Positions 1 through 32,659 of a stretch of DNA of 64,000 bases are shown here, piece by piece. Every line of letters starts with the position of its first letter. Positions within the stretch are counted from its first letter, which is position 1. The notes beneath the pieces were generated by a model. That model searched no databases, was not told the DNA's origin, and saw only the letters and a list, made by a program, of their open reading frames with translations. Origin of the DNA: Euglena gracilis (taxonomy: Eukaryota); assembly GCA_039621445.1 (NCBI GenBank), contig CP154954.1, forward strand, positions 33,209,455 to 33,273,454, given 5' to 3'. The position numbers were made by a program, and so were the translations under genes.

Positions 1-784
1 AGCAATGAGGTGGGTGGGTTTGTGAGAAAAGGGAGGGAAGAGGCCCTTGAACCTGCAATGGGAACAGGCAACAGTGTGGTGTGGGATGCGTTGCGTTGTG
101 TGGTGTGGGGCAATGAGCTGTGGCGCGGTGCGGTGTGAGAGGTGATACAAACCCCGGTCACCCAGCGACGTCGCTTAGGCCCAGCGGGTCCAGCCAGCCA
201 GCAGCTTTTTTTCCAGCCTCGGAACCTCCATGAACTAATTTTGTTTTGCTTTCCGTTTGCTTTGGGGTGGCTGGACAGTGACAAAATTTTTTTGCTTTCG
301 GCAGGAATGGACCAAAAACGGGCAAAAAATTGCCAGTCCAAACCTGCAAAGTTGGCAGAAATTGCAAAGTTGGCAGTTTGGGGGGGGGGCGCTTTTAGTT
401 TGCATTTCTTGGTCCCCTGTTCAACCCCTGGTGACCAGTTCCAGCCAGGGACCCCATGGGGTGGTGGGTTAGCCAGCAGCCTTTTTTTCCAGCCCGCCAT
501 AATTTTCCATCCTGTTAGCTGGACCTTCGGGCACCAAGCGACGCCCAGGTTGGAGCAGCAGTTGGGGCAGCAGAGTTGGTGTATATCAACAACCTCTTTA
601 CCAATCACCACAAGTGAACAGTGCATAAAGTGGGTGCCCTCCATCATGACCCACAATGTTGCCTTGGGTTGGTTGTCCATTGTCCTTTGCAGTGATAAGT
701 TGCTGGGAACGAACGGTTTGGCAGTTGGCCATCCTTGGACTATGTCCACCGCAGACACACAAATGCCCACCCGGATGCTGTAGG

Positions 785-3700
785 ATGGCGTTGACTGCTG
801 CACAGACCATCACCGACGGCTTGATGAAGGACATCATCACGCCAGGTGAGCAGGAACGATTTCCTTTTTTGCTGCTTCGCGGTTCCTTTTTTGCTCTGCA
901 CAATAAACACAGGAAACAGTTCGTTGTGGGGCCAACCCCAAAAAAACAACACCCACGAACCCAAGGATTTTTTTGCATGACATTGCAAACCCTTTTGTGT
1001 GGGAATAAAAAAGACACGTCGTCTGGGGCAAACCCCAGGCTCTCTTTGGCAGTTGAGGAAGTGCAGACCCCCATAGCCCAGAGGGAGGATCTCTTGGCAC
1101 CTCCCCCGAAGTGGGCTGGGTTTTAGGTTGGAGGCACATCACACAGCCGGTCCAGGGGCTCGAAAGAAACCACTTCCAAGAAGGGGAATTTCTTTGGGTC
1201 AGATCCAGTGTTGACCCAACCAGGCGGCCCACATGGGACGAGCTTTTTTTTCTTGCCAAGGACCGCGCCTCAAAAACACTTGGACTTTTCAGGCCAACAG
1301 CTGGTCCGGGCGTCGAACGGGGTCGAACCTTAAAATGTCAAAGATATGCACGATGCATTCCTTGGCAGTTTGGGGAGGGGCGAAGGTTCAAGGATGCCAG
1401 AACTCATTTTTATCCCGAAGTGGACCTCTCTAAATGGGCATTTTTCCGCCATTTTCCCCATGGATTTACATTGCATACGGTGGGACGGGAAATTTCCGTT
1501 GCGCTCAAGGACCGCCCTGGACTCAGCCCGATCCCTCCCCCATTCCTGCTGTGAGCAGGGCCAGAAAAGCAGCCCCCTCCCCCAGACCAGGGGGTGACCC
1601 CACCATGTGCCAACCCTCCCCCCAAGGGTATTCCACCGGCCCCCCTGTGTCCCAGGGGACGGCGCGACGTTCCCCACCGCCGGGGAGACCGTGATGGTGC
1701 ACTACACCGGCACGCCCACGGAGCGCTCTGCGGGCCTCCGGACGTTCGGGTTTCTGCGAACCGCCGGGGACCGGGCGGCGCAGCTCGCACGGCCCCCGCC
1801 CTGCCCGCTGCTGGGGCCCCCCGGCCGGGACCGCCGCCCGCCTGCCCGGAGCGCGCCGTGGCTCAACTGGCGGCTGACGGGTCCACCTTCGACACGTCGC
1901 GGGGCGAGTGGGCCGACACCTGCAACGGCATCACCGTGTTGAAGAAGAAGAAGCCGTTCACCTTTGTCCTGGGCCAGGGTATCTTCTGCTTTCCCTCCTG
2001 TGGCATGGTGCTGCCAGCTTTTGAACCGAGTACTGAATGAATGGAGTGGTGTATGAGAGGCCGCTCAGTTTGAAAGGAAGAAACAGACCTTTGTAGAACA
2101 TCCCCTTCTCGCCATTTTGTACCTTTTTTTTATTTATTGTAAGCAGGGAAGAAATACGTTTCGCATGTTTTTTGCATGTTTGTGAAATTTTTGCGCATTT
2201 TTCAAATTTTCCAAAAATCTGCATCTTTGCTGAATTTTTTCGATTTTTTCAGCGTATTTTTTTGCTTTTTGGCACATTTTTCGTGACTTACCCAATTTTT
2301 TACATTTTTGGGCATTTTGCAAATTTTTTCATTTTTTTGAAAGTTTTTCATTTTTTAGGAACTCAGATTTTCCTTGTAAATCCACATAACTCTTGTGAAT
2401 TTGGTGCCATTTTTGCATGTTTTCAGGTAAGTTCTGTATTTGCATCATTTTTGCGCTTTCCCCTCAGATTTTGCATATTATTGCGCATTTTTTCCAAAAA
2501 TGCATCTTTGTTTTCCCAAGGCCAGACTAGCGCAATTCCACCCCCCTGTGTAAGCGACAGCTGGGATTTACACCCACTCGCCCAGCTGAATTTAGTAAAT
2601 AAGTTAAGACTCCGTTTTTCTGGAAATTAAAGCGATGGAAAATCCTTCAGCGCCAAAGCGCTTTATGTGGAGCTCGATAAAAAATTAGCTAACTTTGGGC
2701 CTGAATTCGTCCAAAGGTGCCCAAGAACGGAAATGCAAACCCTAGCTTAAGCCCCACTCCTGTGATTAACCAAATCTTTCCCGAAATGGTGGTGAAAACG
2801 GCACATCCAATGTCCTCGTGTCACATGCCACCAGATCATAGATCATGTATACATTGTACATGTATGTGTGTACATTACATGTATTAATGAATATATTCAT
2901 TACATATCCATATATACAGGAGACACATGTTATAAATGAATACACATGTATATGTATATGTAAACCTCCCCCCAAATAACCTGTCGGGGCCCTTGCTCCT
3001 GGCAGAATGACTTGGCAGGGGGTGAGGGGAAAAAAAGATGGTTCCAGTAACTTGGCACCCCCCTTTTTAGGCAAAATTCCTTTACGACGCTGAAAAAAGT
3101 GCCCAAATAACCTGGCGGGGGGGGGCAGGGCCAAAAGTTGGTTCCAATAACCTGGCACCCTGCCAGGTTATTTGGGGGGGAGTTACATATTATATTGTCT
3201 GTCCCTCGTGGCTTCCAGGTCGAGGTGTGGGGCTGCCAAATAATTTTAAAAGGCATTGTCTACCTCTTCAGAAATTTGTTTCCTTAAAAAAAAACACGAC
3301 CCCCAGTTAACAGAGGAACGCCTCAAACGGGGTTAAGCGTTTGGTGTTGACAACAACTGCCGGTCGTACGACCATGTGCCAGCCTTTCCGTTCCCATTCC
3401 GGGGGTTGTTGGCTGGCTGGAGATGTGGGTCGCCCCTGTGGGTGTCGCCACCCACCTCCCACAGGGGCCGTCATCGCGGGCTGGGACCAAGGCATCCCCA
3501 CCATGTCCCTCGGGGAGCAGGCGCGCTTCCACATTCGTGCCGACCTCGCCTACGGCGACAAGGCAGCCCAGGCCACCAACGGGTGTAAAAATTTGATGAA
3601 AATTCAAGAAGTTGCAAAAAAGCGCCTTTTTGGTGAAGTTCACCGTTGGTTTAGGCAGGGGACCCCCGGCTATCAAGAAAGATCCCCCCTCACCAGCTTG

Positions 3701-4040
3701 TTACCGGCTGTGTCCGAAGGACAAAGCCGGTGGAGACAAGGCAGTACAGATGGCCATCGGGACCCCTCCTCCCCCCTGTACAAGACTGAACCGGCCTTTC
3801 CTGAATGAAGCTCCTCTGGCCGTGCGCCACTTCCGTTTTGAGCTCAGGGGCAAGTGGAGATAAAGTCCTGGGCGTGTCTTGGGGTTGCTGCGACTGCCAA
3901 ACGCTGGGGGGCCGGCTCTCCCCGCTGGCCTGCCCCGCGTCACATGCGGCGGGGCCACCATCAGCCCCGGCTCCGACCTCATCTTCGACATCGTGCTGCT
4001 CGCGGTGGGGAAGCACTACGCCCATCGCTCCCTGTGGTAG
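785..4040 (+). CDS. FKBP-type peptidyl-prolyl cis-trans isomerase (FKBP12-like), 5 exons: 785-845, 1656-1713, 1866-1978, 3465-3565, 3939-4040
   Basis: Joined exons read MALTAAQTITDGLMKDIITPGDGATFPTAGETVMVHYTG(T/K)LAADGSTFDTSRG...KPFTFVLGQGAVIAGWDQGIPTMSLGEQARFHIRADLAYGDK(A/G)VTCGGATISPGSDLIFDIVLL...*, containing the FKBP motifs HYTG, FDxS, VIxGW, AYG and LIFD. Introns 1 and 3 are GT-AG and phase-compatible. Introns 2 and 4 are non-conventional, with boundaries uncertain by 1-2 nt. Confidence 0.93.
1221..1519. mobile_element. hAT-type MITE, family A, older copy
   Basis: Ends CAGGCGG...AAGGACCGCCCTG, with flanks GACCCAAC / GACTCAGC (6/8 match). Confidence 0.75.
1714..1865 (+). other. Non-conventional (euglenid-type) intron 2 of FKBP
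   Basis: No GT-AG. The 5' arm CCACGGAGCGCTC..GGGC pairs with the 3' arm GCCCGGAGCGCGCCGTGG. CAC lies at +4..+6 and GTG at -8..-6. Removal restores HYTGTL in frame. Confidence 0.85.
2960..3187. mobile_element. MITE family with TGTAAACCCCCCCAAATAA-type TIRs
   Basis: Inverted ends. Related copies lie at ~13829-14060 (reversed), ~45705-45900, ~7749-9400, ~14700-15035 and ~42899-43523. Confidence 0.7.
3566..3938 (+). other. Non-conventional intron 4 of FKBP
   Basis: CAGGCCA (3569) pairs with TGGCCTG (3926-3932) and there is no AG acceptor. The frame requires 373 nt to be removed, 1 nt more than the +4/-8 rule predicts, possibly because of a C-run indel. Confidence 0.8.
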
Positions 4041-4563
4041 CACGCTGCCTCCCAGCAAACCCCGTTCCTCCCCTTACCCGTCTCACGAAGGCAGCATCGG
4101 GGTTCCATTCGCTCACCTGCTGCTCACCCCCGCGCAGCAATGCGAATGTGATCCGGAGGTGATGGCAAGTTCTTGCACAGTCTGAACCAACCCCAGTGAT
4201 GGGTGAACACAGAAATGCTTATTTATGAACAGGAAAAAGACAACAGAAACAGTTTCAAGAGATTCCAGCAAACCCTTTTTTGGCAAACGACACCACCATA
4301 TTCTTTGGTGGAGCAGTGCTGTTACCAGGGTCCGGTGTTTGACAAGTTGACAAGTTTAACCTTATGATTATGATTATGATTGGTCATTTGGGTGAGAGTT
4401 GATGGTTTGCCAAAAATGAACGCAAATTTCCTCGCCCCAATCGTTCTTTTCATTCCCTCCCCAAGTTTAACAGAAAATATCGAAAAACGTCGGCAAACCC
4501 CCCATTCAGATTCGGCTAAGTGAACCTCCTCCTCCCCCCCCCCCCGATTCCCAGAGCAGGCCC

Positions 4564-6110
4564 CAGGGTTGTATGGGAAGCTCACTCTTATCTCTTTAGA
4601 GTAAGAGCGAAGCTTACCACCAGGGAAAAGGGGGGTGGAACCCCCCCCTCCCCCCCCCGCCCCTGGGTAGACTGTGAAAACCGCGGATTATCACCATGAC
4701 CCCCGCCCGGTTCCCAGAATTTTATTTCAGTCGCGAGAGACTGGATTTCTAGTTTCCGAATCACCGCCATATGACCCCTAACTCCCCGCCAGGCCCGAGT
4801 TATTCACGTGCGAAGGGGTCCAAACTGGGTAGAATTGGCCACCCCCCCCCTCTTCCGAGTCTGCCATTTCGACGGGGTCCAAAAATCAGTCAAAAAATCG
4901 ATTCTTCGAAAATATCTCGAGAAAATGTACATTATTTCCGGAAGTGTCCCACTGACGAAATGTATCCCTGGAGGCCCTCTATCACCCCCGTTCGCCGTTT
5001 TGGCCACCGACAGGCCTGGCTCGTGTTCCGGCGTGCTTTTGCGGCCCAAAACGGCCATTTTGGGGCGTTTTTCGGGCCATTATTTTTTTTGGGCCAAAAA
5101 AATAGGTTTTTTCAAAATATCTTAACAATGAAGCAAAATCAAAGAAAATGTCCGCAAAAATGAAGCCCTTGGAATGCCCTATCCAACCATGGTTTACTTT
5201 TCCCCCAGCTGTTCGTGTAGCCCGAGTTACGGCCATTTTTCGGCCAATTTTGGCCCATTTCAGGGGCTGTTTTGGGCTGTTTTCGGGGTCAAAAAATCGA
5301 TGTTTTCAAAATATGTCGAAAATGAAGCATAATCAAAGGAAATGTCCAGAGACGTAATTTGAAGCCCTTAGAACGCCCTATCTAACCGTATTTTGATTCC
5401 CTCGCAACTCCCCGCCAAGCCCGAGTTACGGCCATTTTTTCGGCCCGTTTTGGCCATTTTGTATAGTTTTAGCCTGTTTGACTTGACCGTTTTCGGCCAT
5501 TTTTTGGGGTCAAAAATCGAGAAGTTCGAAAAAAACCCAAAACCATGTTTTTTGGCTTCCAGGACCCGGAAAAACTGTTTTTGAGCTGAAAATGAGCATT
5601 TTTCAGCCCCCCCCCCCCCGGTCCCCTCCTCTGCCTAGCGTCCGAGCCACGTTTTCCGTTTTACAGTCTAAATCTGCGCAAGGTAAAGAGCTCAGCACTA
5701 TTCAAAACCTGGTTTCGGAAGGGGGTCCCCCACCCCCCTCCCCCTCCTCTGCGGGGGCAAAAAAATTTTCCCGCGCTTCGCACCGGGTGTGTATTTTTAG
5801 GACCCTCTTGAGGCGTAAGATGAAATTTTGGCAAAATGGCCAAAAATGGCCGTAACTCGGGACAGGTGGGGAGTTGCGTGAGATGGGGCATTTTGAGGGC
5901 TTCAATTTGATCTCCTGACATTTCCTCTGATTCCTCACCATTTTTGAGAATTTTCAGAAAAATTGTTCTTTTAAATTGTTCAATAAACGGCGGAAATTTT
6001 CGGCCACCGAAAACTGGAGCTAATGGAGGTAGGAGGGGGGGGTCCCCCCACCCCCCCCCCCTAGTTTCGGAGGGGGGTCCCCCCCCCCCAGAGATTCCCA
6101 TCCAACCCTG
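4564..6110. mobile_element. TIR element with CAGGG...CCCTG ends and internal repeated modules
   Basis: CAGGGTTGTATGGGAA / TTCCCATCCAACCCTG inverted pair with inverted subterminal segments. No TSD is visible. Confidence 0.6.
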
Positions 6111-6975
6111 CCGAACATGAAACCAGTGGTGGACCATGGGTTGGTTGTGGTGGGTCATAGATAGTCATAACGCATTGGTGGCTTGGGGGGGACCTCCCTG
6201 GGTCATTTTCCTCTCCTTTGACAGATCCAGTCGTTTCTCGGGGGGGGGGGGATCCGAGGGAAAACGTTGCCTTCCGCCGTCCAACAACATGGGATGGAAG
6301 GGCGGTTGTTCAGAAGCCCTTGCCGCAGGGTAGGCCATGGTGTCAGGGCACCGGCAATCAACAACTTTGCACCACCTGATCTGTCCTCGCTGAGTTTTTC
6401 GGCGTTTGAATAAGGTTTTCAATTAAAAATGTCCATTGCCATGTCCATTACGTCCAAGGGAAATTCTGGACAATGTGTGTTGGAAGCAGGGCGGCCCCTG
6501 ATGGCTTTAATTGATGTGATTTCGCCTTTTTTTTCCATAAGGACAAGGGGCAGCCAACGGCTGCTCCGGGGTCTCAAACAAGATCAATAAACAAAAGAAG
6601 CCGAAAAAAAGAAGGGTAAATGGCGGATGGTCCAAGGATGCCAGAAATACCTTTCCTTTTTTTGCCAAAATATGGCCATTTTGTGTGTGTGTATCTTTCA
6701 TGGGAAGGGTGGCAATTGACACATAGTTGTGATTGAACTGAATGTGCAACAGACTGCTTTCACAGCTCCGCAGGGCAGTCCTTAAAAAGAATAATTTTGT
6801 CCCAGCATCTCTCTTGTTTGCATCGGCAAGGCAGAATTGTTCTGGGATGTGTGACCTTTTGAAAGCAATGCACTCTTTTTGCACCCTACGTCCATGACGC
6901 CTGCATGGTGACAGGACAGAAGAACGCACAACCACTGTTGAGTATCCTGTGCTGGCCCACCACAGGCAAACCACC

Positions 6976-8804
6976 ATGAAAATGAATATGCCCGTCGACG
7001 CGGACACCCATGCCGCGTCCAGGATTCTTTTCGTGGGACCAGATTTGCATTTATTTAGCTTGCTGAAGGGAAGGGCAGCTGGTCGGTTGTATAATTTTGA
7101 CCCCAAAAAATGGCAAAAACGGGACACAACAGGCTCTCCAGCTCGAAGATGGGGTTAAAACTCATTTTTTTACATAATTCGCATTTGTTTGCATTTTTGG
7201 TGAGTTGGGCGGCCCAAGGTTGGGTTTTGGGTTTTGGGTCCCCCCCCCAAATTTTTGTTTTTTGGGTACCCCCCCCAAAAACACCAAAAATTTGTATTTT
7301 TGGGACCCCCTCTTTGAAAAATTTTACCCCTAACCCCTAACTACCTAAAAAAGGCCGATTTTGGCCAGGAAAAGCCATTTTTTTCAAAAATTTCTGCGCC
7401 TGCGGCGCCAAAAAGTATATCTCACCCCCCTCTGGGCCCTCCGGGGGAGTCCGGCTGGACCCACCCTGGGTGATCCCTGGGGCTGCAGCCGGGATCGAAC
7501 CACCGACCCCGCGTGCAAAGCAGGATTCCTGTCCAACACGTCCAAAAGGATGGAAGCGCACCGGGGGGGGGGGGGGCAGTGCTTATACAAGGCCAGTGTT
7601 TATACACGGGGGGGGGGGAATGGTACAACAAAATTGTGGATTCTGATAAGGGGTGACCGTTGGAATCCAGACTGTTATTTTCGGAGGGAAAATCATGCCC
7701 TCCAGAATTGTGGCCTCTGATTGGGGGGGGGCAGGGGTGTGATCATTGTAAACCCGCCCCCCAAATAATCCCCCCCCCCCAAATAATACCCCCCCCTCGG
7801 AGGTATTGCAAAAACTGGCCCCTACACTAGACATTTACCCCCACACCCCCCCCCACACCCCCCCCCCACCCCCCCCCCCACCCCCCCCCCCACACCCCCC
7901 CCCACACCCCCCCCCCCCCCCCACCCCCACCCCCACACCACCCCCCCACCCCCCCCCACACCCACCCCCACACCCCCCCCCCCCCCCCCCCCCCCCACCC
8001 CCCCCCCCCACCCCCCCCCCACACCCCCCCCACACCCCCACCCCACACCCCCCCCACACCCCCCCCCCACACCACCCCGCCCCCCCCAGGTGCCCCCCCC
8101 CCCCCCCCCCTCCACCCCGGGTAGCGTTTCCCCAGTGGGGTTTCGGCGGCGGGGGTATTTTTTGGACCCTTTTGGGACCCTATGTTGGCAAATTGGAGGT
8201 CCGTCCAAGACCGCATTTTTTTCCACACCGTCCAAATTTCACAATTTTCTGAAAGGTTTGAATGTCGTAGGTTTTTAAAGCAAAAAAATGGGTGAAATAC
8301 CAAAAATTTGCCAAGAGAAAAAATGTCAATAAAATTTGAGTGTGCCAAAATTTGGGGCAGTTTTTTTGACTTTGCAGTTTTATCACCACTCCTGAAAACA
8401 ACTGAAACCTGAAAATTTTGGTACCTTTTTCATGAAAACGTATGTTTTTTCCGTGAAAAATTGGAGCCCAGACAGACATTACCCAGGCCCACGGCCACCG
8501 ATGAGGGGTCCGGTGGCCTACGGCCCCCGCGGCGGGGGGGAGGGGGGGCTGCGCCCCCCCCTCCCCCCCCGCACCCCCCCCTCCCCCCCCGCCCCCCCCA
8601 TTATCACTGCGCATTGTTGCAAAAAATTGATCCCGATGAGGGGTCCGGTGGCCTACGGCCACCGCGGCGGGGGGGGAGGGGGGGGCTGCGCCCCCCCCCT
8701 CCCCCCCCGCACCCCCCCCCCCCCCCCCGCCCCCCCCATTATCACTGCGAATTGTTGCAAAAAATTTACCCCGATGAGGGGTCCAGTGGCCTGCGCCCCC
8801 CCCC

Positions 8805-8835
<31 letters not shown>

Positions 8836-11800
8836 ACACCCCCCCCCCCCCCCCCCCCCCCCCCACACCCCCCCCCACACCCCCCCCCCAGCCCCCCCCA
8901 CACCCCCCCACCCCCCCCCCCCTCACCCCCCCCCTCCCCCCCCCCACCCCCCCCCACCCCCCCCCACACCCCCCCCCCAACCCCCCCCCACACCCCCCCC
9001 CCCCCCCCCCCCCCCCACCCCCCCCCACACTTGTCTAGTGTAGGAGCCAGTTTTTGCAATATATGCCCCCTCGGGGTACGACTTCGGCCACCAAAATAAT
9101 ACCCCCCTCCCCCAGTTTCGGGCCGAAAGCCCGGATTTTTGACCTGAAAATGTAGGTAAAAATCACAATCTCTGACGATAAATTTCGAAAAAAATCGATT
9201 TTTCTGGATTATCTGGCCTCCAAGAAATGCTAAATTTCATGAGAAAGTACAAAAAAAATTGATCCCAAAGGGGGGTTTTGGCACTATTTTTGCTCCTACG
9301 GAACTTCGAAAAATTTCGAAATTTTTTGGGAAATAATGCCCCTCGGGCCGGGACTTCGGGCGAAAAAATATTACCCCGGGTATTATTTGGGGGGTTTTAC
9401 ATGTCTCGAACAGAAAATTGCATTTTGGTGCATTTTGAAAGGGCTTGTGGCCCCAAAAAATTTCAGGACCCAAAATTGTACTAACTAAACTAACTGGACT
9501 AACTGGGTGGGGGATGGTCTGACTACTGAAAAGTAAACCGCCAGAAAGTGTTTCAAGCAGGCGGGGAGTGTTCAGGACAACTCTGAGCGAAAGCCCCTTC
9601 GTGACTTTGCGGATGTCGACCATTGTTTGCCATGGTTTTCTCTCATCGTCAATGGAGACCCAAAAATTTGATTTTTGGGTACCCCCCCCAAATTTTTGGG
9701 CCGATTTTGGGACCCCCCCAAAAATACAAAAACAAAACCCAACCTTGTTGGGCCAATTCCCACCCTCCCATGGGGGTGGTGGGGAGGGATTCTTAAAAGG
9801 TTGGTCCGCAAACCCGCTCCACGGTGGGGGCACCCTTAAAGGCCTTGTGGGTCCACAATCACTTAGTCACTGGCTGACTCCCCCTGGGGGGGTGGGTGAC
9901 TGATTTTTTCAGCGTGACTAACTGGTTTTGGCCCGGACCTCCCTCCCCCCCCCCCAGTGGGTCAACAGAAAACCCCAATTGACTTGGTACCGAAGGCGCC
10001 GGGAAAAAAGGTTTTACTTTTTTTTTCAAGTTTGTTGTGAAATTTCTCTTGGGTTCAGGAGTATTATTTCTTAAGAAATTTTCAATTTTCTTCAAGGTTT
10101 TAAGGCGTTTTTTGAATTTTTAAGGCGTCCATTTTACAAGGGAAGTCCAGGTCCATCCTGGCATCGAACCGGGCACAAAATCAAAATGTCGAAAATTCCA
10201 TTATTTCGGGTTTGGGTGGGCGGAGAATGTGAGAATGTTCCAGCGAAATGCCAGAAATCGCCTTTTCCTGGAATTGGTTTGTTTCTTGCCGAGATTTTTG
10301 CGCCCTTCATTTTAAGCTCGAATTTCAAAAGAATTTCCCAGAATGATTTTTTCAGATTTTTTAAGGGAGTTCGGCCAAATATTTTAAAGGCACCATTAAA
10401 ATGGTTATAATTTGAAAACTAATGAAAACAATACCCCTTGCTTGGATTCCAGACAGGGCGGTCCTTAAGGGACAGGAAAGTTTTTATTTTTAATTTCCTT
10501 AAGGACCGCCCCCCCCCTTTCGGCCAAAGAGCCGGCTAAGGGCCAGACTAGGACTTGAACGGGGGCAAAAATTAAACAGTCGAAAGACACAGTTTTTGAT
10601 GATTTGGGTGGATGGACGATGGTCCAAGGGTGCCAGGAATCAATTTTTTTCCTGATGTCGACCTGTTCTTGCTGAAAAATGCCAAAATTTCTTGCCCATT
10701 TTCCAGTATATTTTTCACTGAGTGTGCTGGGACAGCGGAGGTTTTTTTTTTTTATTGCCTTAAGGACCGCCCTGATTCCAGAGTGGCCGACCCCCCTTGG
10801 GGAGGGTGACTGGTTTTTGGAAGCCCCCCTGGCGGTTGTCATATGTGCAGGATACTCCGGAGAAGATTCCATGAAACATTTTTTTGACCGGTGGGTAACA
10901 GTCAACCTTCAAGGAGGCTTGGGGACACTTGACGCCCAGAGAGCTTTGGCGGAACCTCACCGGATCAATAGCCCAAGGGGTGGGCAATGGGCAGTGATCT
11001 CTTCCCATATCTTCCCATATTCCCATATCATATATAGGGACGCCGGTTTTTGGTCAATGTTTTCCTTCAGCGCCAGCAGATTTTTTCTCTGCAAATTGCA
11101 ACTTTGGTGGGTGGGCGGTCATCCTTCCCCGCACCTCTTGGGTGTGGGGAGAGGTCGACCAGCCCCCCCCCCCCCCGGCCTTCCTACCCAGCCCCACCCG
11201 CCTCCCCGACGTGGACCCTGGCGCCGTTCCAGCAGCAGGTGGAGCAGCAACAGCTGCAGCAGGAGCAGCAGCAGGAGCAGGAGGAGAAGCGGAAGTCCAT
11301 GCTGCTCCCCAGGGCCCCCGCCTCCGCTCGGCGGTGGGTAGCTTTCGTTGCACGTTGCATTCAGTCTGGGGTCGGGACAGTGCAAGCCAGCTCCCAAGGC
11401 TGCGCAAATTGGCACGAAGTGTTTCTTGGTGCGGTGGTGCTGGCAGGGATATTAAATTTAGAGGGACAGCTGCCTTCGGCGGTGCAGTGAGGTGTTGCAA
11501 AAATTGGCGCCTCTTCTAGCAAATTCGCCCCCACACCCACCACACCCCCCACCCACATCCCCCCCAACACCCCCCCTACACCCACCGAGGCTGGTGGGCC
11601 CCAATTTTTAGAGTATGATGATGGTCTGACGTGTCCAAGGAAGTTTATTTTTAGTCTTTTTTGGAGGAAGTTTATGGAGTCTTTTTTAATAAGTTTATGG
11701 AGGAAGTTTATTCTTTTTTGGATAAAACGATGGTATTCTGGGCCCGGTCGGTCGAGAGAAAATGCACGATACAATGTACAACGTAAGTCAGAAAAGGCAA

Positions 11801-12903
11801 ACTAGGCCCCAAAAGGCAAGACTCCTACAGGTTCTAGCAACGAGCCCAACAATAAAACCCAATTTTTGGAGAACCCATTTAGATCGACCCCGACTCCCCC
11901 TCATTAATGCCGACCACAGAAAAATCAGAAGAAATCCATCTACACCGACCCCCTCTTTTGCACCGGTGCACAGCAAGGCAAGGTGAGGCAAGCACAAGAA
12001 AAACACAGGGATAAACACAAAAAAGCACTCAGGCTCACCCCAATGTCTACTTTGGCAAAACGCAAACCGATGGACTTTTGTTTATTGGGGACAGGGGACA
12101 GGATGAATGCACGCTGCCTCGTCCCTTCCCCCCCCTCCAGTCGAGTACCTTGACCAATTTTTCCTGACCCCCCCTCCCCAGGATTTCAAGAAAGAAAGGT
12201 GACATACCGACCCGTCAGTGCAAACGATGGGGGTTTATTAGCAACGCTTACGTTTGGCATTAGTACAGTTCAGTTGGTGAACGGACCTGGAATGCCATTT
12301 GAAACACACTGCGAGGCCGCCCTGACATTGGCCGTCCTCTCCCCTGAGGCTCGAGAGCGGCTCGGCCGCATTTCCACCGTGAAGCCTGACAAGGCCCGGC
12401 AAGTCGAGAACCTCCTCCTCCAGGCCGTCTCCCGCGGTCAGCTCCGCCCAGCCCTGGCTTTGTTTTGGGTGGCGGTATGGCGGCGACCATGTTTGCGGTG
12501 CATCGATGGATGGAGCTCGCCGCCACCCCAAGTGACATCGGCATCCCAAGTTTGACCCGGGCAGGATGCCAACGTGGCCAGGCCAATGAGCCGGAGGGGG
12601 TGGTGTGTGTGCTATTTTATATTGTATATCACATATGTTTTTTTATTCTTACTATTTGTTTACTATTTTATATGTAATAATATTTGGGGTTGGGGTTGTA
12701 TGGTGCGTTTGGGTCTGTGCGTGTGAACCGGAGGGCGATGCATCCGTGCCCTGGCGGCAGCGGGGAGTGGGGGCTGTCAGGGCCCCCCGGTGGAGGAGGA
12801 CCAGCTCATCACCCTCCTGGAGCAGATCGGCGGCGGCGGCGGGGGCTCCACCGGCCCCAGCATCGTCGTCAAGCGGAAGGTGGCGGAGGACGACGACTGG
12901 TGA
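6976..12903 (+). CDS. PDCD5: Programmed cell death protein 5 / dsDNA-binding domain protein, 4 exons: 6976-7016, 11226-11306, 12330-12445, 12782-12903
   Basis: Joined exons read MKMNMPVDADTHAAFQQQVEQQQLQQEQQQEQEEKRKSMLLAVLSPEARERLGRISTVKPDKARQVENLLLQAVSRGQLRPPVEEDQLITLLEQIGGGGGGSTGPSIVVKRKVAEDDDW*. LSPEARERL, VKPDKARQVE and EEDQLITLL match the family pattern. Exon 1 is inferred from intron-end pairing and frame. Confidence 0.9.
7481..7546 (-). pseudogene. tRNA-Ala(TGC)-like relic or tRNA-derived SINE head
   Basis: The minus strand has an anticodon-like hairpin CCTGC-TTTGCAC-GCGGG and a B-box GGTTCGATCCC, but no convincing acceptor stem. Confidence 0.35.
7806..9059. mobile_element. Foldback-like element with TTGCAAAAACTGGCTCCTACACTAGACA TIRs and C-rich tracts, nested in another MITE
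   Basis: Inverted termini flanked by TA. Fragments recur at ~16416-17050, 19470-20090, 21640-22005, 24380-25760 and 39616. Confidence 0.7.
10454..10774. mobile_element. hAT-type MITE, family A (321 bp)
   Basis: Perfect 17-bp TIR CAGGGCGGTCCTTAAGG and perfect 8-bp TSD ATTCCAGA. Confidence 0.92.
11307..12329 (+). other. Non-conventional intron 2 of PDCD5
   Basis: CAGGGC..GCCTC.GC pairs with GCGAGGCCGCCCTG. The register is exactly +4/-8 and gives the in-frame join SMLLAVLS. Confidence 0.88.
12446..12781 (+). other. Non-conventional intron 3 of PDCD5
   Basis: CAGCCC pairs with GGGCTG. The exact +4/-8 register gives QLRPPVEE in frame, whereas a GC..AG reading (12446-12780) is out of frame. Confidence 0.8.
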
Positions 12904-12935
12904 GGTCAGCAGTGCGGCGCAGCATCTCCCAATGA

Positions 12936-15900
12936 CGTTTCCCGACTCTGGCCTCACACGGCTCGCGTCTGCCTGGCGGGGCCAAGATTCGCATTCTTGT
13001 GCCAGTTGAGGCGGCCGCCTTCTATGACCTGGTCTCCGATCCACTGCACCGCAGCTCTGTAACCATTGATGACCCGGTGCGATTTTCAGGTCCTGGTTCG
13101 CAGTGTTTTTTGGCACTCACTCACCACCAACCTGTATTGGTGTACTCTATCCGGTTCCCTGATGCTGGGGCCAGCATTGTCCACACCAGTTCTCGTTTGC
13201 TTGTTTGGTCGACTGACCCCCCGGGGGGTGTGCCATCTGTGGCAGGCGCCCCCCAGCACAGGGCACCTCCCCGGGTTGGTAAAGAAGCCTAAACCCAACT
13301 GTTTCGGCTGAAATGCCAACCGCTGTTCTTCAAGGCCCTCCCGAGCTATTGTGTTTCGAACCATCACTGGTCCGTGGTCTGCAGCTATTCGTTTTTTCTC
13401 CGGAATTCGTTTGTTTTTGCCGAGATTATGCGACTTCATTTTTGCTTGGATTTCGGAAATTTTGCCAGGAGTGTTTTTTCCAGGCTTTTAAGGGTTTTTT
13501 ACCTTTTTAAGGCATCTTGGCCAAAAACCTCAAGGTCTTTTTTAAGGTTTTTCAGGGGTTTTAAGGCGCCCCTGAGTCCAGCCCGCCGGAAGGGTGGCCA
13601 TACGACAACTGATTTTTCGTTTTCAGGTCTGCAAAAAAATGGGCCAAGAATGGGCAAAATGGGTCAGATTTAGGCTGGCCTGGGCAAATTTGGGGCCAAA
13701 AACAATATTATGTCCCCGGTTCGACCCCTTTCCCCCATTTCTCACCCCCCCCCCGCCTACCCCTACACAACGACCACCCCCCCCCGGTCGGGGGTTGCAG
13801 GTAAGGGGTGTGTATGACCACCCCCGATTGCAAGCCCCCCCAAATGCCATGGCGGGGTGCCAGGTTATTGGAACCAACTTTTGGCCCTGCCCCCCCCCCG
13901 CCAGGTTGTTTGGGCCCTTTTTGCAGCACCGTAAAGGAATTTCGCCTAAAAGGGGGGTGCCAGGTTGCTGGAACCATCTTTCTTGCCCCTCCCCCCGCCA
14001 GGTTAATCGGCCCCCGCCAGGAGAAAGGGCCCCGCCAGGTTATTTGGGGGGGGGGTTACAGCTGGACAACATCCCTTGCATTTTCTCCAGATGTGCCTTC
14101 ATGGCAGACTAGGGCGATGAACGTCCCTGGGTCGGACTTCGTCGGGCAAGAGGTCTTCCGGTACCTTCGCCACCATCCCCTTCCCAGTCGCATCGCAATC
14201 CAGCCTGGATTCTTGTCTGGTGGGGCTGGGAGTGGTGCACTGTGGGCACGTTGGTGATCCAGGAATTTCTAAGCCGGAGGGCGCCCCCCCCCCCGGGGTT
14301 CAACACCCATTTTCCCACCAGCACCTCCCTGCCAGGCATCATTTTAAGGCGAAGATTTTCAAATTTTGAACAGTTTTTTTTTTCAAGGCATTTTGAATTT
14401 TTCAGGATTTTTAAGTGGTTTCGTTTCAAGGGTGATCGAAGAGCCATCTGGGCATCAAACCAACGTCGGTCCCAGGTTGAAAATCAAACAGTTCAAGAAC
14501 ACCTTCTTTTTGAGTGTTGGTTTCAGCGATGCCAGAAAGCATTTTATACTGGAGTGGGAGTGGGCTGTTTTTGCCGAGATTTTGCAACTTCTTTTTTGCT
14601 CGAAATTCGAAACAATTTTGCAGGACGAAAATTTTAAGGCGTTTTAAGGGTTTTTTTTAGGCCAAAGTTGATTCGGTTCCTTAAGGTTTTTGACCCCAAA
14701 TAACCCCCCCCCCTCGGGGTCCGACTTTGGCGACCGGGTTAATACCCCCCCCCCCGATTTCGGGCCGAAGGCCCGGATTTTGACCTGAAAATGTAGGTAA
14801 AAATCACTATCTCTGACAACAAATTGCAAAAAAAAATCGATTTTTCTGGATCATCTGACCTCAAAAATTGGCCCCAAAGGGGGTCAAAAGTCGCTATTTT
14901 TGCTCCTGCGGGACTTCGAAAAATTTCGAAAATTTTGGAGTGCTATTACCCCTCCCAAATAATACCTCCCCCCCTCGGGCTGGGACTTCGGGCGGAAAAT
15001 AATACCCCGGGGGGTATTATTTGGGGGGGTTTACAATAATATCATAATGTTGTAAATTGTAATTATAAAAATGAACGTTGATAATGCCTTTTTTCGTCCG
15101 CAGCAGGTGGCAGAGGGTTTTAGGGCTCTAGTGATTTTTTTTATTCCCACCATATTCGAAATATTTTTGAACAATCACAACTGTAAAAAACCAAAAGGAA
15201 ATGTCCGGCTATCTCAAATGAAGCCCTTGGAAGTTCCCATCAAACCATGATTTAGTTTTCCGCTGACCCATTCTCCGCAGATTTTGGCCCAGTTTTGGCT
15301 CGTTTTGTGGAAATTTTTCAGCGATAAAACGAATCGATATTCTGGCAGAAAAAAGTCCCAAAATGTCCGCTACACGAGCCACAACATAGAGTCGCCCCCC
15401 CCCCCCGGTTGTCTGGAAATGCCCTCTCCCAGAGGGCCCCAGAGGGCCGCATGGTGATAATCCACAGTTCTCATGAGGCGGGTCCCCCCTCATGAGAACG
15501 CGGGGGGGGGGGGCGAGGGGGGCCTGCCAAAAGAGGTGCTGGCTGAACCCTCCCTGGGGGGGGGTTGTTGGGGGGGGGACTTGTTGTGGGAAAAAATCTG
15601 CACAAAATTTTGTCCACAATTTTTCCCGGCGCTTTGAGAAAGTCCAATTTTCTCCAGTTCCTTTGCACCGATTTTGGAATAGGCGCATCTTGCAAAAATT
15701 GGCGCCCCCATTGGCCTCAGTGGGGGGTGAACCCAAAAATTTCTTCCTGTTCCTGAGATCCCGGCTTTCCGAATCCCCTCCGTTTGGGGACCGCCAGGCC
15801 AGCGCTATTCACCCGACAAAGGGGAGCAAAGTGAAAGAAAAAAAAGTGCAAAGTGGATGAACAAAACAGTTCTGTGTTTGCACTGCAAACTCAGGATTGG

Positions 15901-17640
15901 CCAACCCCACCTCCTGCGTTCTTTGACTCTGTTTCTCACCAAGGAACATCTCGAAAAGCATACATCGTTTTGGAAAGTGACAGCCAAACCAGTCCCGGCC
16001 CAGGGGGTGGTGCAGGGGACCAGCTTGCAGCCAGCAGCCCAGAGGAGTACCGTGCGTTTGTGAAGGGCTCGCTGGAGGTATGCTTTCGATCACCGTGTCT
16101 CGTTCGCTGCTTCGTCAGTTCGCAGGACGGCGTTTGCCTGGAATGACTGCGTCGTTAAAACCGGCCCAAACTGGTGCATTTGGGGCTGTGCTAACAGAAA
16201 ATGTCCATAACTCAGACCAGGGATGTATGGGAAAATCAAAACGATGGTTTCAGAATACCTTGGAAATGAGGCAAAAATCAAAGCAACTTTCCGACGGCCA
16301 AAACAGGAATCCCCTTGCACAGCCTTTTAACACCCCCAAAATGGTCTGCCCATCCACGTCGAATTACAGCAGCAAGTCAATCAGGGTTCGGTTCATGTGT
16401 TCATCTGGAGAGGCATTGCAAAAAACTGGAGCCCACACTAGATATTTACCTGCACACCCCCCCACACCCCCCACCACACCCCCCCACACCCCCCACACAG
16501 GGCCCCACACACCCCCAGGGCAGAACGGGAATCGGCCAAACAGCCAGGGTGGTCGGTGGGGGCCACCCCGTGCATGATGGGTGGGGCCCTCCACCACCCC
16601 TTCCCATTGTTCGTTTTTGGACCCCCAAAAATTTTCCCGGCGCCAAAGGCGCCGGGTGTATTTTGGACCCATTTTGGGACCATGTACGAGGTCCCCCCAA
16701 AACCCCCCCAACCCCGCATTTTTTCACACCGTTTTGGTTTTGAAAGGTTTTTGAAGCAAAAAAAAATGCTTTTGAAAATCCAAAAAAATTTCCAAGTGAA
16801 AAAATGTCATTAAAATTTGACTGTGCCAGAATTTGGTCCAATTTTTTGACTTTGCTTTTTTTCACCCCCTCCCCCTAAAAACCACTAACACAAAAACCTG
16901 AGATTTTTGATATTTTTTTGTGAAAAACTGGAGCCCAGACAGACATTATCAAGGCCTATGGCACCGATGGGGCCTTGGTGGCGTAGGGCCACCCGGGGGG
17001 GGGGGGGCTGCGCCTCCCCCCCCCCCCCGCACCCCCCATCATCACTGCCCATTGCTCACTGCAGGGTGGCAGAGACTTTCTCAAGAATTCGTCGCAGAAC
17101 TCCCCGCCAGCGGACAACGCTGATATCACCCCTGACCGGGCTGCTTCGTTGTCTGGACGTTCACAGACAGCCGCAAAGTTTTGTTCGCGTTCCTCGGCTC
17201 TGGAATCGTTGCTATCACATGTGTTTCGGCAAATTTTGCACAAGACTTGGTCCGTGGCCAGATGGGGCCTTCGCTGCCCGTTGTCCACCAACAAGGAGGA
17301 GTCGATCCTCATCAACGTCTGTGGATCCCAAAAGATGGCAAAGTTCAAACCCGGTGTGTGGGATGCAGGGGCTCGTCCTGGACTGGCTACGGCAGGGTGC
17401 CAACGAAGGTCCTTTCGGCCAATGCTTGTGGGAAACCCCCCCGAAAAGCCTAAAAATACCTTTTCCGGCCCTGTCTTGTTTTCGCAAATAAGTTTGGCCC
17501 CCCTGTTCAAACTGCAACCTTTGTGACCTGAGTGCTAGGTGGACACGGGAGGGGGTGCATTGTGGTGGCATACGAGCCCGGCACACATGGATCGACAATT
17601 ATTCATTATGGGCATTTCCTTCTTCTTCCACAGGGGAGGG
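12936..17640 (+). CDS. Putative multi-exon gene of unknown function (exons ~12936/13006-13278, 14091-14245, 15895-16077, 17065-17353, 17539-~17640)
   Basis: Five unique, stop-free segments among repeats join in frame through GT-AG sites (one GC-AG). No recognisable domain, and the start and end were not found. Confidence 0.45.
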
Positions 17641-18909
17641 GGAGGTCCCACTCTTCATGTCCCCAATTGTGTCTGGCCAAGTGGACGTCGTGGTCCACGA
17701 CCATACCATTGCTTAACACCTGTCCTACCCCACCCCCGGGGGGGTGACTGACTGGTTTTTTCGGAGTGGAAAGCGACCCCCCCCCCCCGGGGTCGCTAAG
17801 CAATGGTATGTCCACGACGATGCGCTGCGACAGGCAGACCGTGAGCCATGGTGTGGTTTCTCCTGTGAAAAATGGTCCCAACGTGTGAAATTTTCGGCCA
17901 TGCCTTCCTCCCCACCCCCCCCAAAATTTCAGTCAAAATGCCACTTCTGTGATTTTTTTTTGCAGAAAGAAAGCTTTTACTTTTTTTTTGCCCCCAAAAG
18001 CGACCCCAATGTAGAAAACACATTTGGCAGCGATTCCGAAAACAAACAGGAACAGGAAATTACTTTCAGTTTCACCCCCACACCCCTCACCAAACATATG
18101 ATCCAAAACATCAAAAGTGGGGTTTTCAACTTTAATTTTTGACTCCGTTCAATGCCCAGGCCTGCTTTTGGCCAGCAGTTAGCCTAGAGGAGGTCTTTGG
18201 AGGGTCGAAGAATGCGGGGGGAGCTCCCAAATGCACCTGCACGCACGTCGGTGGGGGGCTGGTGTTTTTTTAAAGGCAAAACTTTTCAGATTTTTTTCTT
18301 TCAAAGACTTTTTCAAAGTTTTTTTTCAAAGGCTTTTTTTCAAGCACATCGAGAAACTCAATATCAGCAAAAACAAGCCAACGCCACTGGAAAATGCCTG
18401 GCATCCATATATTGCAAAAACTGGCTCCTGCACTGGTCAAGGGGGGTGTGGGGGGGTGTGGGGGGGTGGGATCAGGATTAGGATTAGAAGTGCCCCACAT
18501 CACTGCAATGCCCAAGGTCGGCAGGGCCGCTATGGCCCTGCCTTCAAGGGGCCTACGCCGCTCCGTGATGAGCGTGGTACAGGGGTGGGGTGGTGGGAGT
18601 GAGTGGGGTGAGCCACTTCCGACACCGGCTGCCCGGCAGCGGGCATGGGCAACGGCACGGGTTGGTCCCGGGTCCCAGCAGGCCGAGTGCGTTCTCGGAG
18701 GCGGTGTAGAGGGGGCAGAGGGGGTGAGGGACAGGGTGGCCCCCTGGGGCTGGGCGTGGTGGGGCTGGGCTGCAGGGTCGGCCTGCTGCCGGGGGGATGG
18801 GACGTTGGAGCCCTGGGAGGACGGGCCGCTGGCCCGCCCTTTAAGAGGGGGCGAGTAGCTGCAGCTGGGGATCGTGCAGCCGGCAGGCGGGCTGGGGTTG
18901 GCGTTGCAG

Positions 18910-19363
18910 GACCCGGGGGGAATTGATACCCACAATTTTTCCGCAATTTCCGCAATTTTCCGCAATTTTTTACTATTTTTTTCGCAGAATTTTTTCCCCA
19001 CCACTGAAGATGGAAGATGCAATGAGTTCAAGCCATTCTTCAAATGGAGCAACAGGTGTGCAATTGTGTTCTATTGTTTTTCCCCCCCTGGTGCATTTTC
19101 TCACAGGTGCATCTGCCAACAAAAGAAAGAGAGGGAAAGGGCGTGGGGGTGAAGCAGCAAAGTGTTGTTCAATGCCAGCGTCAAGACGCATGTTGCAATT
19201 CAAAGGTTTCTCCAAACCTCACAATTGAAAATTTTCAAAGCCCCCTCAAGAAGAAATGTGTATATTCCTGATATCAGTTTTTCTGCAATTTTTCCGCAAT
19301 TTCCGCAATTTTTCCGCAATTTTTCCGAAGGCCTCCGATATCAATTCCCCCCCCCCCCGGGTC
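18910..19363. mobile_element. TIR element inserted into a dispersed GC-rich repeat
   Basis: GACCCGGGGGGAATTGATA / TATCAATTC(n)CCGGGTC inverted ends. The uninterrupted host sequence is present at ~26800-26830. Confidence 0.75.
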
Positions 19364-22300
19364 GGGGGCGGGGTGTGGAGTGGGCGGATGAGGAGGTTGC
19401 AGAAGGTGGCCTCCTCATCGGGGCACTGGGGGGGGGGGATGGTGTCGTGGGGGGTGGGGGGGGGTGTAGGTAAATTTCTAGTCTGGGCTTCTGTTTTTTT
19501 TTACAACAATGGGTAGTGATAATGGGGGGGGGCAGGGGGAGGGGGGCGCAGGACCCCTCCCCCCCCTCCGCGGTGGCCATAGGCCACCGGACCCCCCATC
19601 GGTGGCCATGGGCTTTGATAATGCCTCTCTCTGGGCTCCAATTTTTCACGAAAAAAAACAACAATATTTTCACAATAGAAATATCAAAATTTTCCGGTTT
19701 AAGTGTTAGTATTTTTTAGGAGTGGTGGAAAAAAGTGCAAAGTCAAAAAAATTGCACCAAATTTTGGCGCACTCAAATTTTATAGAATTTTTTTGTTTTG
19801 GAAAATTTTTGGATTTTCGATGGCATTTTTTGCTTCAAAAATATTCAGAATTTTGAGAAAATTGTGAACAAATGGAAGGTGTGAAAAAAATGCGGTTTCG
19901 GGGGTTTTGGGGGGACCTCCTTTATGCCCATATGGGTCCCAAAGCAGGTCCAAAATACACCCGGCGCCGAGCCCAACACTGGTCAAGTGTGGGGGGGGAT
20001 GGGGAGTGGGGAGGGTGGTATGGGGGGGGAGTGTGGTGGGGGGTATGGGGGGGGGGTGTGGGGCGGTATGGGGGGGTGTGGGGGTGGGGGTAAACGTCAG
20101 TTTTATACCTCGTTTAAAATGTGTTTGAGTGCTTTTAGGCATTCTGGCATTCTTTGAGGTCTTTAATGGCTTTTTGAGGGACCTGCCGCGCACCTGGTTT
20201 GCCATGGCCATTTTTTTGACCATTTTCGTCGTGGGTTGCTTATCGAGTGCTGCAAAAGAGATTTTTTTTTCCTTGCTCAAAGATCGCCCTGGTGCATGGT
20301 TGTGATGTCGCCTCGGCCTGTCTGCCGGTGATCTCAGCCAACACAACTGCTCATTAAACACCACCAAACCAAAGCAGGATTGTCACAAAAGGAGCATGTG
20401 GTGCAAGGTATCGCAAAAAAATTGCACTAGCAAATCCCCTCACCCCCCACCCGCCACTGAGGCCAGTGGAGGCGCCAATCTCTGCCCACTGGGCAAAATG
20501 CCCTCCATCAGGTTCAAGCAAGAGTTGATTGAATTGTTCACCTCGACACTCACGGAGCAGCATGCCGTTTCGGTCATCGCGAAGGCTTGCCGCCTTGCTC
20601 CAGCCCGCAGCCCAGGCTTGGGGAAGTCCCCCCAGCAGGTATCCAACATGGTCGTTTTGCACTTTTTGTGGTGCCTCAGCACACTGAGGTCCTGGATCTG
20701 TGGCTCACAACAGAGAGACCCAAACAAAGTCTGTGAATGCAAAGTCCACAAAGTGCAAACTTTGGCACACCTTGCCTGAGCTGGGAACCCGAAAAATATT
20801 CCTTTTTTTGTGTGTTTTTCACTGTTCAGAATCGCTCCAAAATTTTTTTCTCAATTGGGTCATTTCTTGGTTCAGGGAGGGGAAGAATATTTGCCCCTGA
20901 AAGTCCAACAGTAGAGATTTGATTGTCACGAGGGGGTGCCATAGGTTGCAAAACTGGCACTTTCACCAGCCTTGGTTTGGTGGGGGGGGCGGGGGGGTGT
21001 GCATTTTTGGAATCGCTGTGAAATGGGCTTTTCTATGGTTGAATCGTGGGGTGAAAAAAAGGTGAATAATTCTTTGCACAGAAAACGACAGCAAAATAAA
21101 ATTTTTTGGGGCGTCTGTTTCTAAAGTGGTATTTTGCACCTCTCGGGCAGCAACTGCTGCGTTTTACGCACGCCTGCCACGCCAAAATTGTGCCTTTCCG
21201 CCTGCCGCCCTTCGCAGCACTCAGATAAAGGATAAAGGATCGCCGATATCAAGCGTTATTTTTTTGGAGCGCCGACGCGGCCGATTGCTCCAGAAAATGA
21301 CAAAAAAAGACGTTTTTTTCAAAATGTTCGAAAGTTGCGTTTTGACTGTTGTTTGCGGGGTGGGGGCAGGGGGGGGGAAATGCAACTTGCATAATTTGCA
21401 TTTTTTTGCATAATCGGCTTTTCCTGAAAATTGCATTTTTTGCATTTTTTTGCATTTTTTTGCATTTTTTTGCATTTTTTTGCATTTTTTTGACTTGCAT
21501 AATTTGAAGGGCCCAGTTGCATTTTTTCCCCCCCTGGTGGGGGTGCCCCCCCCCCCTACGCACAGCCAACAATTCGCCCACTTTCGCCATCTCTTTTGGA
21601 GGTGGGGGTGGGTGGGGAGGTGCCAATTTTTTGAGGTTTTGCAAAAACTGGCTACACCAGACATTTACCCCCACACCCCCCCACAACCCCCCACACACCC
21701 CCACACCTCCCCCACATGTGACCAGTGTGGGCTCCAGTTTTTGCAACACATGGGGGTTTTTAAACGTCAATTGGTCGTAATCCGCCAAACCTCCCCAATT
21801 GGCCATTTGGCAAAATTTTTCAAAAGCTCTTTCGATCATGGTCGGTCACAAATTGCCAACGATCGGTTTTTGCACTTTTTTCCATCATCATTGCTCATTA
21901 TTGCAAAAAAAACTGTAGCCCAGACTTGAGATTATTATAGCCTACACCCCCCACCCCCCACCCCCCCCCCGACATTTGACCAGTGTGGGCTCCAGTTTTT
22001 GCAATATATGTCTTGGGGGGTCCTTCCTGGGGGGGTTCTGGGAGGTCTTGGGGAGTCGTCAGGGGACGACGTGCTCAATACACAAGGGCTCAAAAAAGTG
22101 AAAACACCCACATTTTATGATGTTGGCACCACAACATTCACACCCCCACCACACCCCCCAGGCATTTCTTGGAAGCGCCTGAAAAAAGCTCAAAGAACCT
22201 TGAAAAATGGAAAAAGTTCCCTTGCAGTTAAATTGCAATGCAATTAAATTCAAATTCAAGTTCAAGTTGAATTTAAAAAGTTTTATGTTTGAAAACCTTA

Positions 22301-23823: not shown

Positions 23824-23894
23824 GCGCCGGTGGTGTAGAGGTATCATGCATCCCTGCCACGGATGCGACCCGGGTTCGATTCCCGGCCGGCGCA
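23824..23894 (+). tRNA. tRNA-Gly (GCC)
   Basis: Acceptor stem GCGCCGG/CCGGCGC, anticodon arm CATCC-CTGCCAC-GGATG, T arm CCGGG-TTCGATT-CCCGG, followed by a TTTTT Pol III terminator. Confidence 0.96.

Positions 23895-27961: not shown

Positions 27962-28120
<159 letters not shown>

Positions 28121-32624: not shown

Positions 32625-32659
<35 letters not shown>

Follow-up and report, generated by a model that had tools for sequence, protein, structure and literature searches.

Knock-in experiments in Euglena gracilis have defined a short code for nonconventional (NC) introns, N3-CAG...CTG-N5 (Nomura et al. 2025, PMC12501133). Splicing calls for 3 nt in the 5′ spacer and for 5 nt in the 3′ one, where 6 nt is tolerated as well, and both the CAG/CTG pair and a purine at the start of the next exon matter for splicing (PMC12501133). 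Fully artificial 50-bp introns composed of N3-CAG, 12 complementary bp, CTG-N5 and a purine were spliced in five of five cases, and removal of the complementarity rendered the artificial intron non-functional (PMC12501133). This recipe is an inverted-repeat pair with spacers. Here we compare it with the inverted-repeat elements and NC introns of a 64,000-nt stretch of the E. gracilis genome (assembly GCA_039621445.1, contig CP154954.1, positions 33,209,455 to 33,273,454 of the forward strand), hereafter the window and numbered from its first base. The window holds four MITEs (miniature transposable elements with inverted repeats), designated A1, A2, B and C, seven NC introns in three genes, and a 109-bp element, D, which together with one flanking repeat appears to constitute one of those introns.

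The origin of NC introns "remains unclear" according to the 2025 study, which poses both this origin and the 3/5 placement of the splice sites as open questions (PMC12501133). Descent from MITE-like elements was put forward in 2014 (PMC3935182), and a 2024 review labels CAG/CTG as a terminal inverted repeat (TIR) and describes the junction repeats as resembling target site duplications (TSDs), mentioning neither "hAT" nor "8 bp" (PMC11282704). The original prediction made from this window held that a MITE-like origin had been suggested in general terms; such an origin had indeed been proposed, and the review had already gone further by naming the TIR and the TSD-like repeats. In E. agilis ACOI 323, gapC intron 4 is the sole strain-specific, recent NC intron, and it carries "eight nucleotide direct repeats" that were ascribed to double-strand-break repair (Milanowski et al. 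2016, PMC4770533). The same study reports CAG(G)/(C)CTG, with G/C at +7/−9 in 31 of 55 sequences, raises this motif as a possible "fingerprint" of a source sequence, and describes a pyrimidine|purine pattern alike at both junctions (PMC4770533), a mirroring that a duplicated target would give. In the full-text literature, with subscription journals and supplements outside the scope of the search, we found no paper tying NC introns, or the 3+5 spacing, to hAT transposons or an 8-bp TSD.

Transposons of the hAT kind are recognized by TIRs of 10–25 bp and TSDs of 8 bp (PMC3942097). Hermes generates 8-bp TSDs with a target preference of nTnnnnAn (PMC10368747), and the maize Ac/Ds end is printed as C/TAGGGATGAAA (PMC3260210). 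From the comparison below, we argue that transposons with 8-bp TSDs, mostly hAT-like, are probably the raw material of NC introns, and that the 3- and 5-nt spacers are probably the two halves of a TSD.

Four inverted-repeat elements and the splicing code

Each of the four MITEs is non-coding, begins with CAGGG, ends with CCCTG and is bounded by a perfect 8-bp TSD, just as the original prediction had described them. A1 (321 bp, 10454–10774; 10446–10782 with TSDs) carries ATTCCAGA on either side, B (425 bp, 41788–42212; 41780–42220 with TSDs) carries CCCTTGGG, A2 (301 bp, 42565–42865; 42557–42873 with TSDs) carries ACAAGAAC, and C (410 bp, 51017–51426; 51009–51434 with TSDs) carries GTTCACCA; none is assigned a strand. 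Among the 710 CAGGG/CCCTG pairs spaced 60–3000 nt apart in the window, these four have 8/8 flank identity against 0.21 expected, where the expectation is the mean after shuffling partner flanks. Their inverted repeats are also the best among the 710 pairs, with matches at 16 (A1), 14 (B), 11 (A2) and 14 (C) of the first 16 nt. The repeat of A1 is perfect over 17 bp (CAGGGCGGTCCTTAAGG). With wobble allowed, uninterrupted end pairing extends over 17 bp in A1 and 8–16 bp in B, depending on the strand, and the predicted RNA fold of A1 has the 17-bp ends paired and the 8-nt flanks unpaired, with a z score of −3.68. Two of the four elements have a TSD that admits no extension on either side. The other two TSDs could be taken as 9 or 10 bp, a reading that borrows the element's own end bases, and 8 bp is thus the length that all four share.

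Relaxing the motif to CAG/CTG ends yielded three extra 8/8 pairs, which we take as chance. One of these three, at 12758–12971, covers the last coding exon of PDCD5. A candidate element at 53476–53805 was rejected because its supposed TSD, CCTCGAGG, is a palindrome that merely lengthens an inverted repeat. The two older copies with 6/8 flanks that had been claimed alongside the four elements were not reproduced: 6/8 CAGGG/CCCTG pairs number seven against 5.8 expected and have poor inverted repeats, and the remaining 6/8 pairs are part of a CAGTTTTTGCAA repeat whose constant GTGGGCTC flank belongs to the repeat unit. This CAGTTTTTGCAA-bearing repeat occurs at least eight times in 21700–25900, always adjoining GTGGGCTC-like bases, and its apparent 6/8 "TSDs" are repeat unit.

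The count of three unrelated families among the four elements was borne out as well. A1 and A2 form one family, with 71% identity over 160 bp, and B and C resemble other families at their ends only. Size (109–425 bp, D included), TIR and TSD all fit the definition of MITEs, and in the window multiple copies are seen for family A alone, which is represented by two complete copies together with eight or more fragments. A truncated copy on the plus strand (52442–52706) is 85% identical to A1 without its 3′ end, and fragments lie at 1389–1519, 41592–41705, 42289–42379, 46850–47008, 48800–48887 and 49193–49318 and, on the minus strand, at 44354–44397 and 50008–50128. A metagenome scan with a 27-nt end of family A returned no matches. 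The first 60 nt of A2 (42565–42624) form a self-contained hairpin, CAGGG...CCCCTG, of about the size of the shortest NC introns, and A1 contains an internal copy of its own end (10469–10511) that is similar to this hairpin. Deletion derivatives of that kind could give very short introns.

Compared with the hAT hallmarks, the 8-bp TSD is present in all four CAGGG elements and in D, and a short TIR with an Ac-like C/TAGGG start is present in all four CAGGG elements. The end of C, CAGGGAT, is identical to the opening 7 nt of the maize Ac/Ds end as printed (PMC3260210).

The same four elements also conform to the published splicing code. All carry N3-CAG and CTG-N5, with 9–12 of the 12 positions beyond CAG paired in either orientation, and the sixth TSD base, which would open the downstream exon, is a purine in six of the eight combinations of element and orientation. 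A 3+5 cut produces the exact empty site in eight of eight cases, that is, for four MITEs in both orientations, and the geometry predicted from the window, in which the cut removes the element plus exactly one TSD whichever way the element is inserted, is thereby upheld. The further claim that such removal is scarless applies to the MITEs at 3+5 and requires qualification elsewhere. One intron of the FKBP gene described below is spaced 3+6, and together with the published tolerance of N6 this means that removal need not always be scarless.

Ends common to MITEs and NC introns would also be expected if the relationship ran in reverse, with NC introns gaining mobility, for instance via circular RNA, and giving rise to the MITE-like elements; release of NC introns as full-length circles has in fact been reported (PMC11282704). 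We consider this very improbable. Cut-and-paste DNA integration is what perfect, copy-specific 8-bp TSDs abutting inverted ends signify, and an excised intron would bring its N3 and N5 with it, whereas the copies share no such flanks.

Element D and the introns of three genes

Element D was absent from the original list and emerged from a scan blind to the end motif, which covered 22,675 8-mer direct-repeat pairs and recovered all four MITEs with D as a fifth element. With an exact 8-mer direct repeat required to abut an inverted repeat directly, it gave A1 and the new element D; as calculated from the pair count, about 0.001 inverted repeats of 12/12 would be expected in that many pairs. D (109 bp, 17702–17810, plus strand; 17694–17818 with TSDs) is bounded by an inverted repeat perfect over 14 bp, CATACCATTGCTTA, and by an 8-bp TSD that is likewise perfect, TCCACGAC. 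It is located inside a coding exon of a PIH1/CS-domain-like gene (hereafter PIH1-like), where it places an in-frame TAA at 17714–17716, so that the read-through peptide runs ...VVVHDHTIA and then stops. Removal of 117 nt, equal to D plus one TSD, instead yields ...VVVHDDALRQADREPW, which matches the homologue P0005 in length residue for residue and without a gap at that place, and the reading frame continues into the next exon, which is supported by RNA. Each of the nine ways of dividing 8 nt between the two offsets affords this P0005-matching product, and no other sum does. In the predicted RNA the ends of D are paired and the TSD flanks are single-stranded save for a few weak pairs (z score −4.74). 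Both junctions are pyrimidine|purine and the downstream exon opens with G-A-C, in agreement with all published junction rules. We infer from the sequence that D is NC intron 5 of the PIH1-like gene (117 nt, 17699–17815, plus strand) and that it still resembles a fresh transposon insertion. The original prediction had proposed that young NC introns should retain 8-bp direct repeats; D does so in the window, and gapC intron 4 of E. agilis does so in print (PMC4770533).

D might instead be a recent, disabling insertion that stays unspliced in one allele, and the 8-nt repeats of young introns might stem from double-strand-break repair, an idea already in print (Milanowski et al. 2016, PMC4770533). 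Reads from three raw RNA runs, all of low depth, and one DNA-contig run were mapped to positions 1–20000 of the window; none of the data sets listed as containing 3000–12999 is recorded as RNA. The joints listed are mostly repeat joints from the DNA run, with no NC junction among them, and among these joints there is no read-level junction for D or for any MITE. RNA cover on the flanks of D amounts to about 27–32 reads at 17665 and 18–30 at 17823. At 12387, 12911–13065, 17062, 17665 and 17823 the RNA runs depart from the window sequence, in the majority of reads or in mixed proportion; alleles, paralogues or strains thus vary, with consequences for the question whether every gene copy contains D. 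Such variation would suit an insertion confined to one allele, as would the CAT/ATG ends of D, which are outside the tested code. Yet the junctions of D obey every published rule, including pyrimidine|purine twice and G-A-C at the exon start, and introns with another third-position variant, CAC/GTG, appear to be removed in FKBP and in PIH1-like intron 1. The bin depth around D is closer to the spliced than to the retained expectation, although this estimate is rough and weak, and a perfect 14-bp inverted repeat abutting the repeats of D is not something that break repair would lead one to expect. Overall, we regard a disabling insertion or a repair scar as quite unlikely, and continue to read D as an NC intron derived from a transposon.

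The other six NC introns come from gene models that were built and then compared with transcript-derived proteins. The FKBP gene (five exons, 785–4042, plus strand) encodes a product with 141 of 144 residues identical to P0003 (EG_transcript_28360). It contains GT-AG introns at 846–1655 and 1979–3464 and NC introns at 1714–1865 (CAC/GTG, 3+5) and 3566–3938 (CAG/CTG, 3+6), and both of the latter are missing from the same-species transcript-derived protein. For the intron at 3566–3938, 9 nt must go beyond the motif; a 3+6 division gives a purine exon start and 3+5 a pyrimidine, which fits the published N5-6|R rule as a natural example of it.

The PDCD5 gene (dsDNA_bind; 11226–12903 from the located exons, plus strand) aligns without gaps with a transcript-derived protein of Eutreptiella, P0001, and has NC introns at 11307–12329 (CAGGG...CCCTG, 3+5) and 12446–12781 (CAGCCC...GGGCTG, 3+5). 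Its first exon was not located: position 4326 was the only candidate 5′ end there, with a 9-bp stem, and was dropped because the resulting N-terminus is unlike the Eutreptiella protein. The 3′ end of PDCD5 intron 1 resembles the family A end, with CAGGGCGG, one deletion and then CCTCG; this likeness is suggestive only, and about 22 loose matches to that 12-mer occur in the window. Another transcript-derived sequence, P0002 (EG_transcript_43545), reads through 12154–12329, the 3′ part of the same intron, into exon 2, and intron-retaining transcripts of PDCD5 NC intron 1 are therefore present in a public transcriptome.

The PIH1-like gene (14117–43850, plus strand), found via a representative-library match, has 11 exons encoding 296 aa, seven GT-AG introns and three NC introns, at 14168–16017 (CAC/GTG), 17134–17259 (CGG/CCG) and 17699–17815 (D, CAT/ATG). 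The model shares 189 identical residues with P0005, and the alignment is gapless over residues 1–162, a segment that spans all three NC junctions. Among its GT-AG introns, one is supported by 19 RNA reads that break off at 17852 and resume at 20514. MITEs B and A2 both lie within GT-AG intron 10, and no MITE of families A–C lies in any definable exon. The earlier statement that TSD-intact copies are all intronic thus describes B and A2 well and D poorly, since D is itself the intron. For both PDCD5 and the PIH1-like gene, D included, the gapless homologue alignments suggest that the NC introns are removed.

Taken together, the seven NC introns have offsets beyond the paired motif that sum to 8 in six cases and to 9 in one. 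The original prediction had counted six such introns, five of them fitting 3+5 and one with CAC/GTG; the sum of 8 persists in six of seven, and the tally is revised to seven introns with two CAC/GTG pairs. Their motifs comprise three CAG/CTG, two CAC/GTG, one CGG/CCG and one CAT/ATG. All seven have the helix at +4/−6 and a purine exon start, the 3+6 intron (FKBP intron 3) being counted at N6. The CDG...CHG core is present in four of the seven, the two CAC/GTG introns and D falling outside it; the CAC/GTG introns are nevertheless missing from the FKBP transcript protein and the PIH1-like homologue. After the CAG-equivalent, 7–11 of 12 positions are paired in these introns, compared with 9–12 of 12 in the MITEs.

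Target duplications as the probable source of the spacers

The explanation we favor would proceed as follows. The four MITEs would be non-autonomous DNA transposons of the hAT kind, presumably moved by a hAT transposase, and in Euglena a transcribed copy would be an NC intron by structure alone. Base pairing of its ends would give a helix beginning with CAG/CTG, and the splicing activity would cut 3 nt upstream and 5 nt downstream of that helix. The 3+5 unpaired nucleotides would then derive from the inner side of one TSD copy and the outer side of its partner, such that the element and exactly one TSD would leave the RNA and the exon would be restored in either orientation. D would represent this state in a real gene, with perfect ends, 8-bp repeats and a conserved exon interrupted by a stop codon, and the six other NC introns would have the same geometry with the repeat lost, as expected with age. 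Both D and fresh insertions would, on this account, really be spliced, and the 3+5 offsets would have been shaped by the 8-bp TSD. Spacers that are TSD halves would explain the sum of 8, the independence of orientation, the mirrored junction rule and the frequent junction repeats, and equally the two intact cases, D and gapC intron 4.

Several observations weigh against this account. The original prediction offered it as the reason for the odd asymmetric offset, and only the sum of 8 follows from it; the 3/5 split is left unexplained. One validated intron, in FKBP, removes 9 nt instead of 8. Scored in the 8-nt register, the flanks of the seven NC introns agree at 2, 1, 2, 4, 1, 1 and 8 of 8 positions, the 8 being D. 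The six older introns, at 1–4 of 8, average 1.8 against a null of 2.08, and shifted registers behave alike; the window amounts to one positive case and no trend. That single case could itself be a disabling insertion in one allele, as considered above, and D starts CATACC, with CAT/ATG ends outside both the published CDG/CHG code and the hAT end motif, so that it has the TSD length of a hAT element and lacks the hAT ends. Families B, C and D are each present as a single copy within the window. The 20 window open reading frames (ORFs) scanned against Pfam include no transposase, and the Hermes-type preference nTnnnnAn is not evident, with T at position 2 in two of four TSDs and A at position 7 in one of four, from few sites. 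Given the scanned ORFs and the ends of D, the label "hAT-based", which the original prediction attached to the system, is not established.

These weaknesses invite the reading that the match is a coincidence, in which hAT ends simply chance to start with CAG, NC splicing separately requires a CAG/CTG helix and spacers of 3 and 5 nt, the MITEs are ordinary transposons of introns and intergenic DNA, and NC introns come from elsewhere. Chance-level flank identity in six of seven introns is what it would lead one to expect, as is a TSD that matches the sum and leaves the split unmatched. The 3′ spacer that tolerates 6 nt (PMC12501133), with FKBP as a 3+6 example, is in keeping with it, and so are the positions of B and A2 in a conventional intron and of families A–C in no definable exon. 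Coincidence, however, needs three chance matches, in the end trinucleotide, the spacer sum and some 12 complementary bp, and it has to accommodate D and the published gapC intron 4, both NC introns bearing the duplication. We therefore judge coincidence unlikely and retain 8-bp-TSD transposons as the probable raw material.

A broader proposition is that NC splicing, in its origin and its present use, is an RNA-level clean-up tuned to 8-bp-TSD transposons; this we advance tentatively, at slightly less than even chances. If it were true, exon insertions of hAT-like MITEs would be nearly harmless, and the clean-up could account for the reported 72% share of NC introns in E. agilis, for how often the junction repeats are "slidable" and for the pyrimidine|purine rule being mirrored at the two junctions. 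If the spacers are TSD halves, the splicing code, the junction repeats, the base rule, the dated gain of an intron and the intron share would have one explanation. Such a system would be a second, non-spliceosomal case of transposons making introns genome-wide. The proposal is a new synthesis inside a known theme, that of transposon-derived introns and the MITE origin already proposed.

Neighboring features and known systems

The remainder of the window contains several features in addition to these introns. The 296 codons of the PIH1-like gene are spread across about 29.7 kb, and one of its GT-AG introns measures 16.4 kb (23753–40136). Within this intron, a G-rich minisatellite at 32884–36304 comprises about 98 copies of a 35-bp unit with about 75% G+C and gives rise to spurious minus-strand open frames of great length. 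At C/G homopolymers (4641–4663, 6044–6061, 15522 and 17016), RNA reads break off by the hundreds and continue as long C/G runs, and the depth peaks in those bins are therefore no evidence of exons. A plus-strand open frame at 52159–52378 shows weak PPR similarity (E 0.05) and ends just short of ttgCAGGGTTTTTTTTT, a sequence resembling an NC intron's 5′ end; for this PPR-like exon (52162–52374) no homologue was found, nor a partner 3′ end for ttgCAGGGTTTTTTTTT. On the minus strand, 53400–59600 is a decayed retroelement with RVT_1 (E 2e-12) at 57207–58235 amid overlapping frameshifted ORFs. The ORFs at 53416–54450 have tyrosine-recombinase-looking motifs, a hint of a DIRS-like element, and Pfam gave no match there.

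Among known systems, the MITEs of the hAT kind, such as maize Ds1/Ac, share with the window elements an 8-bp TSD, short inverted ends, a CAGGG start, small non-coding copies and the occurrence of several unrelated internal sequences under one end motif. The window differs in that no transposase partner is seen in it, the target preference is not evident and the ends of D are CAT. Giroux et al. in 1994 reportedly found that the spliceosome removes Ds from maize transcripts, usually imprecisely.

Compared with the euglenid NC introns described by Milanowski et al. (2014, 2016) and Nomura et al. (2025), the introns of the window have the same helix at +4/−6, usually with CAG/CTG, the same 3-nt 5′ and 5-nt (sometimes 6-nt) 3′ spacers, a purine exon start and no GT-AG. 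The relevant passages of those papers name no transposon family, no 8-bp TSD and no equation of 3+5 with a TSD; the window adds actual MITE families and one intron with intact TIR and TSD. Introner elements of Micromonas and Aureococcus and the TIR/TSD introns of Amoebophrya and Fritillaria likewise involve exon insertion by a DNA transposon, after which the element and one TSD copy are removed and the coding sequence is restored (PMC11282704). Those systems rely on the spliceosome, draw their splice sites from element plus TSD and have TSDs of 3–5 nt (PMC11282704). In contrast, the cuts in Euglena are seemingly measured from an RNA helix of inverted ends, with no splice-site dinucleotides and a TSD of 8 bp.

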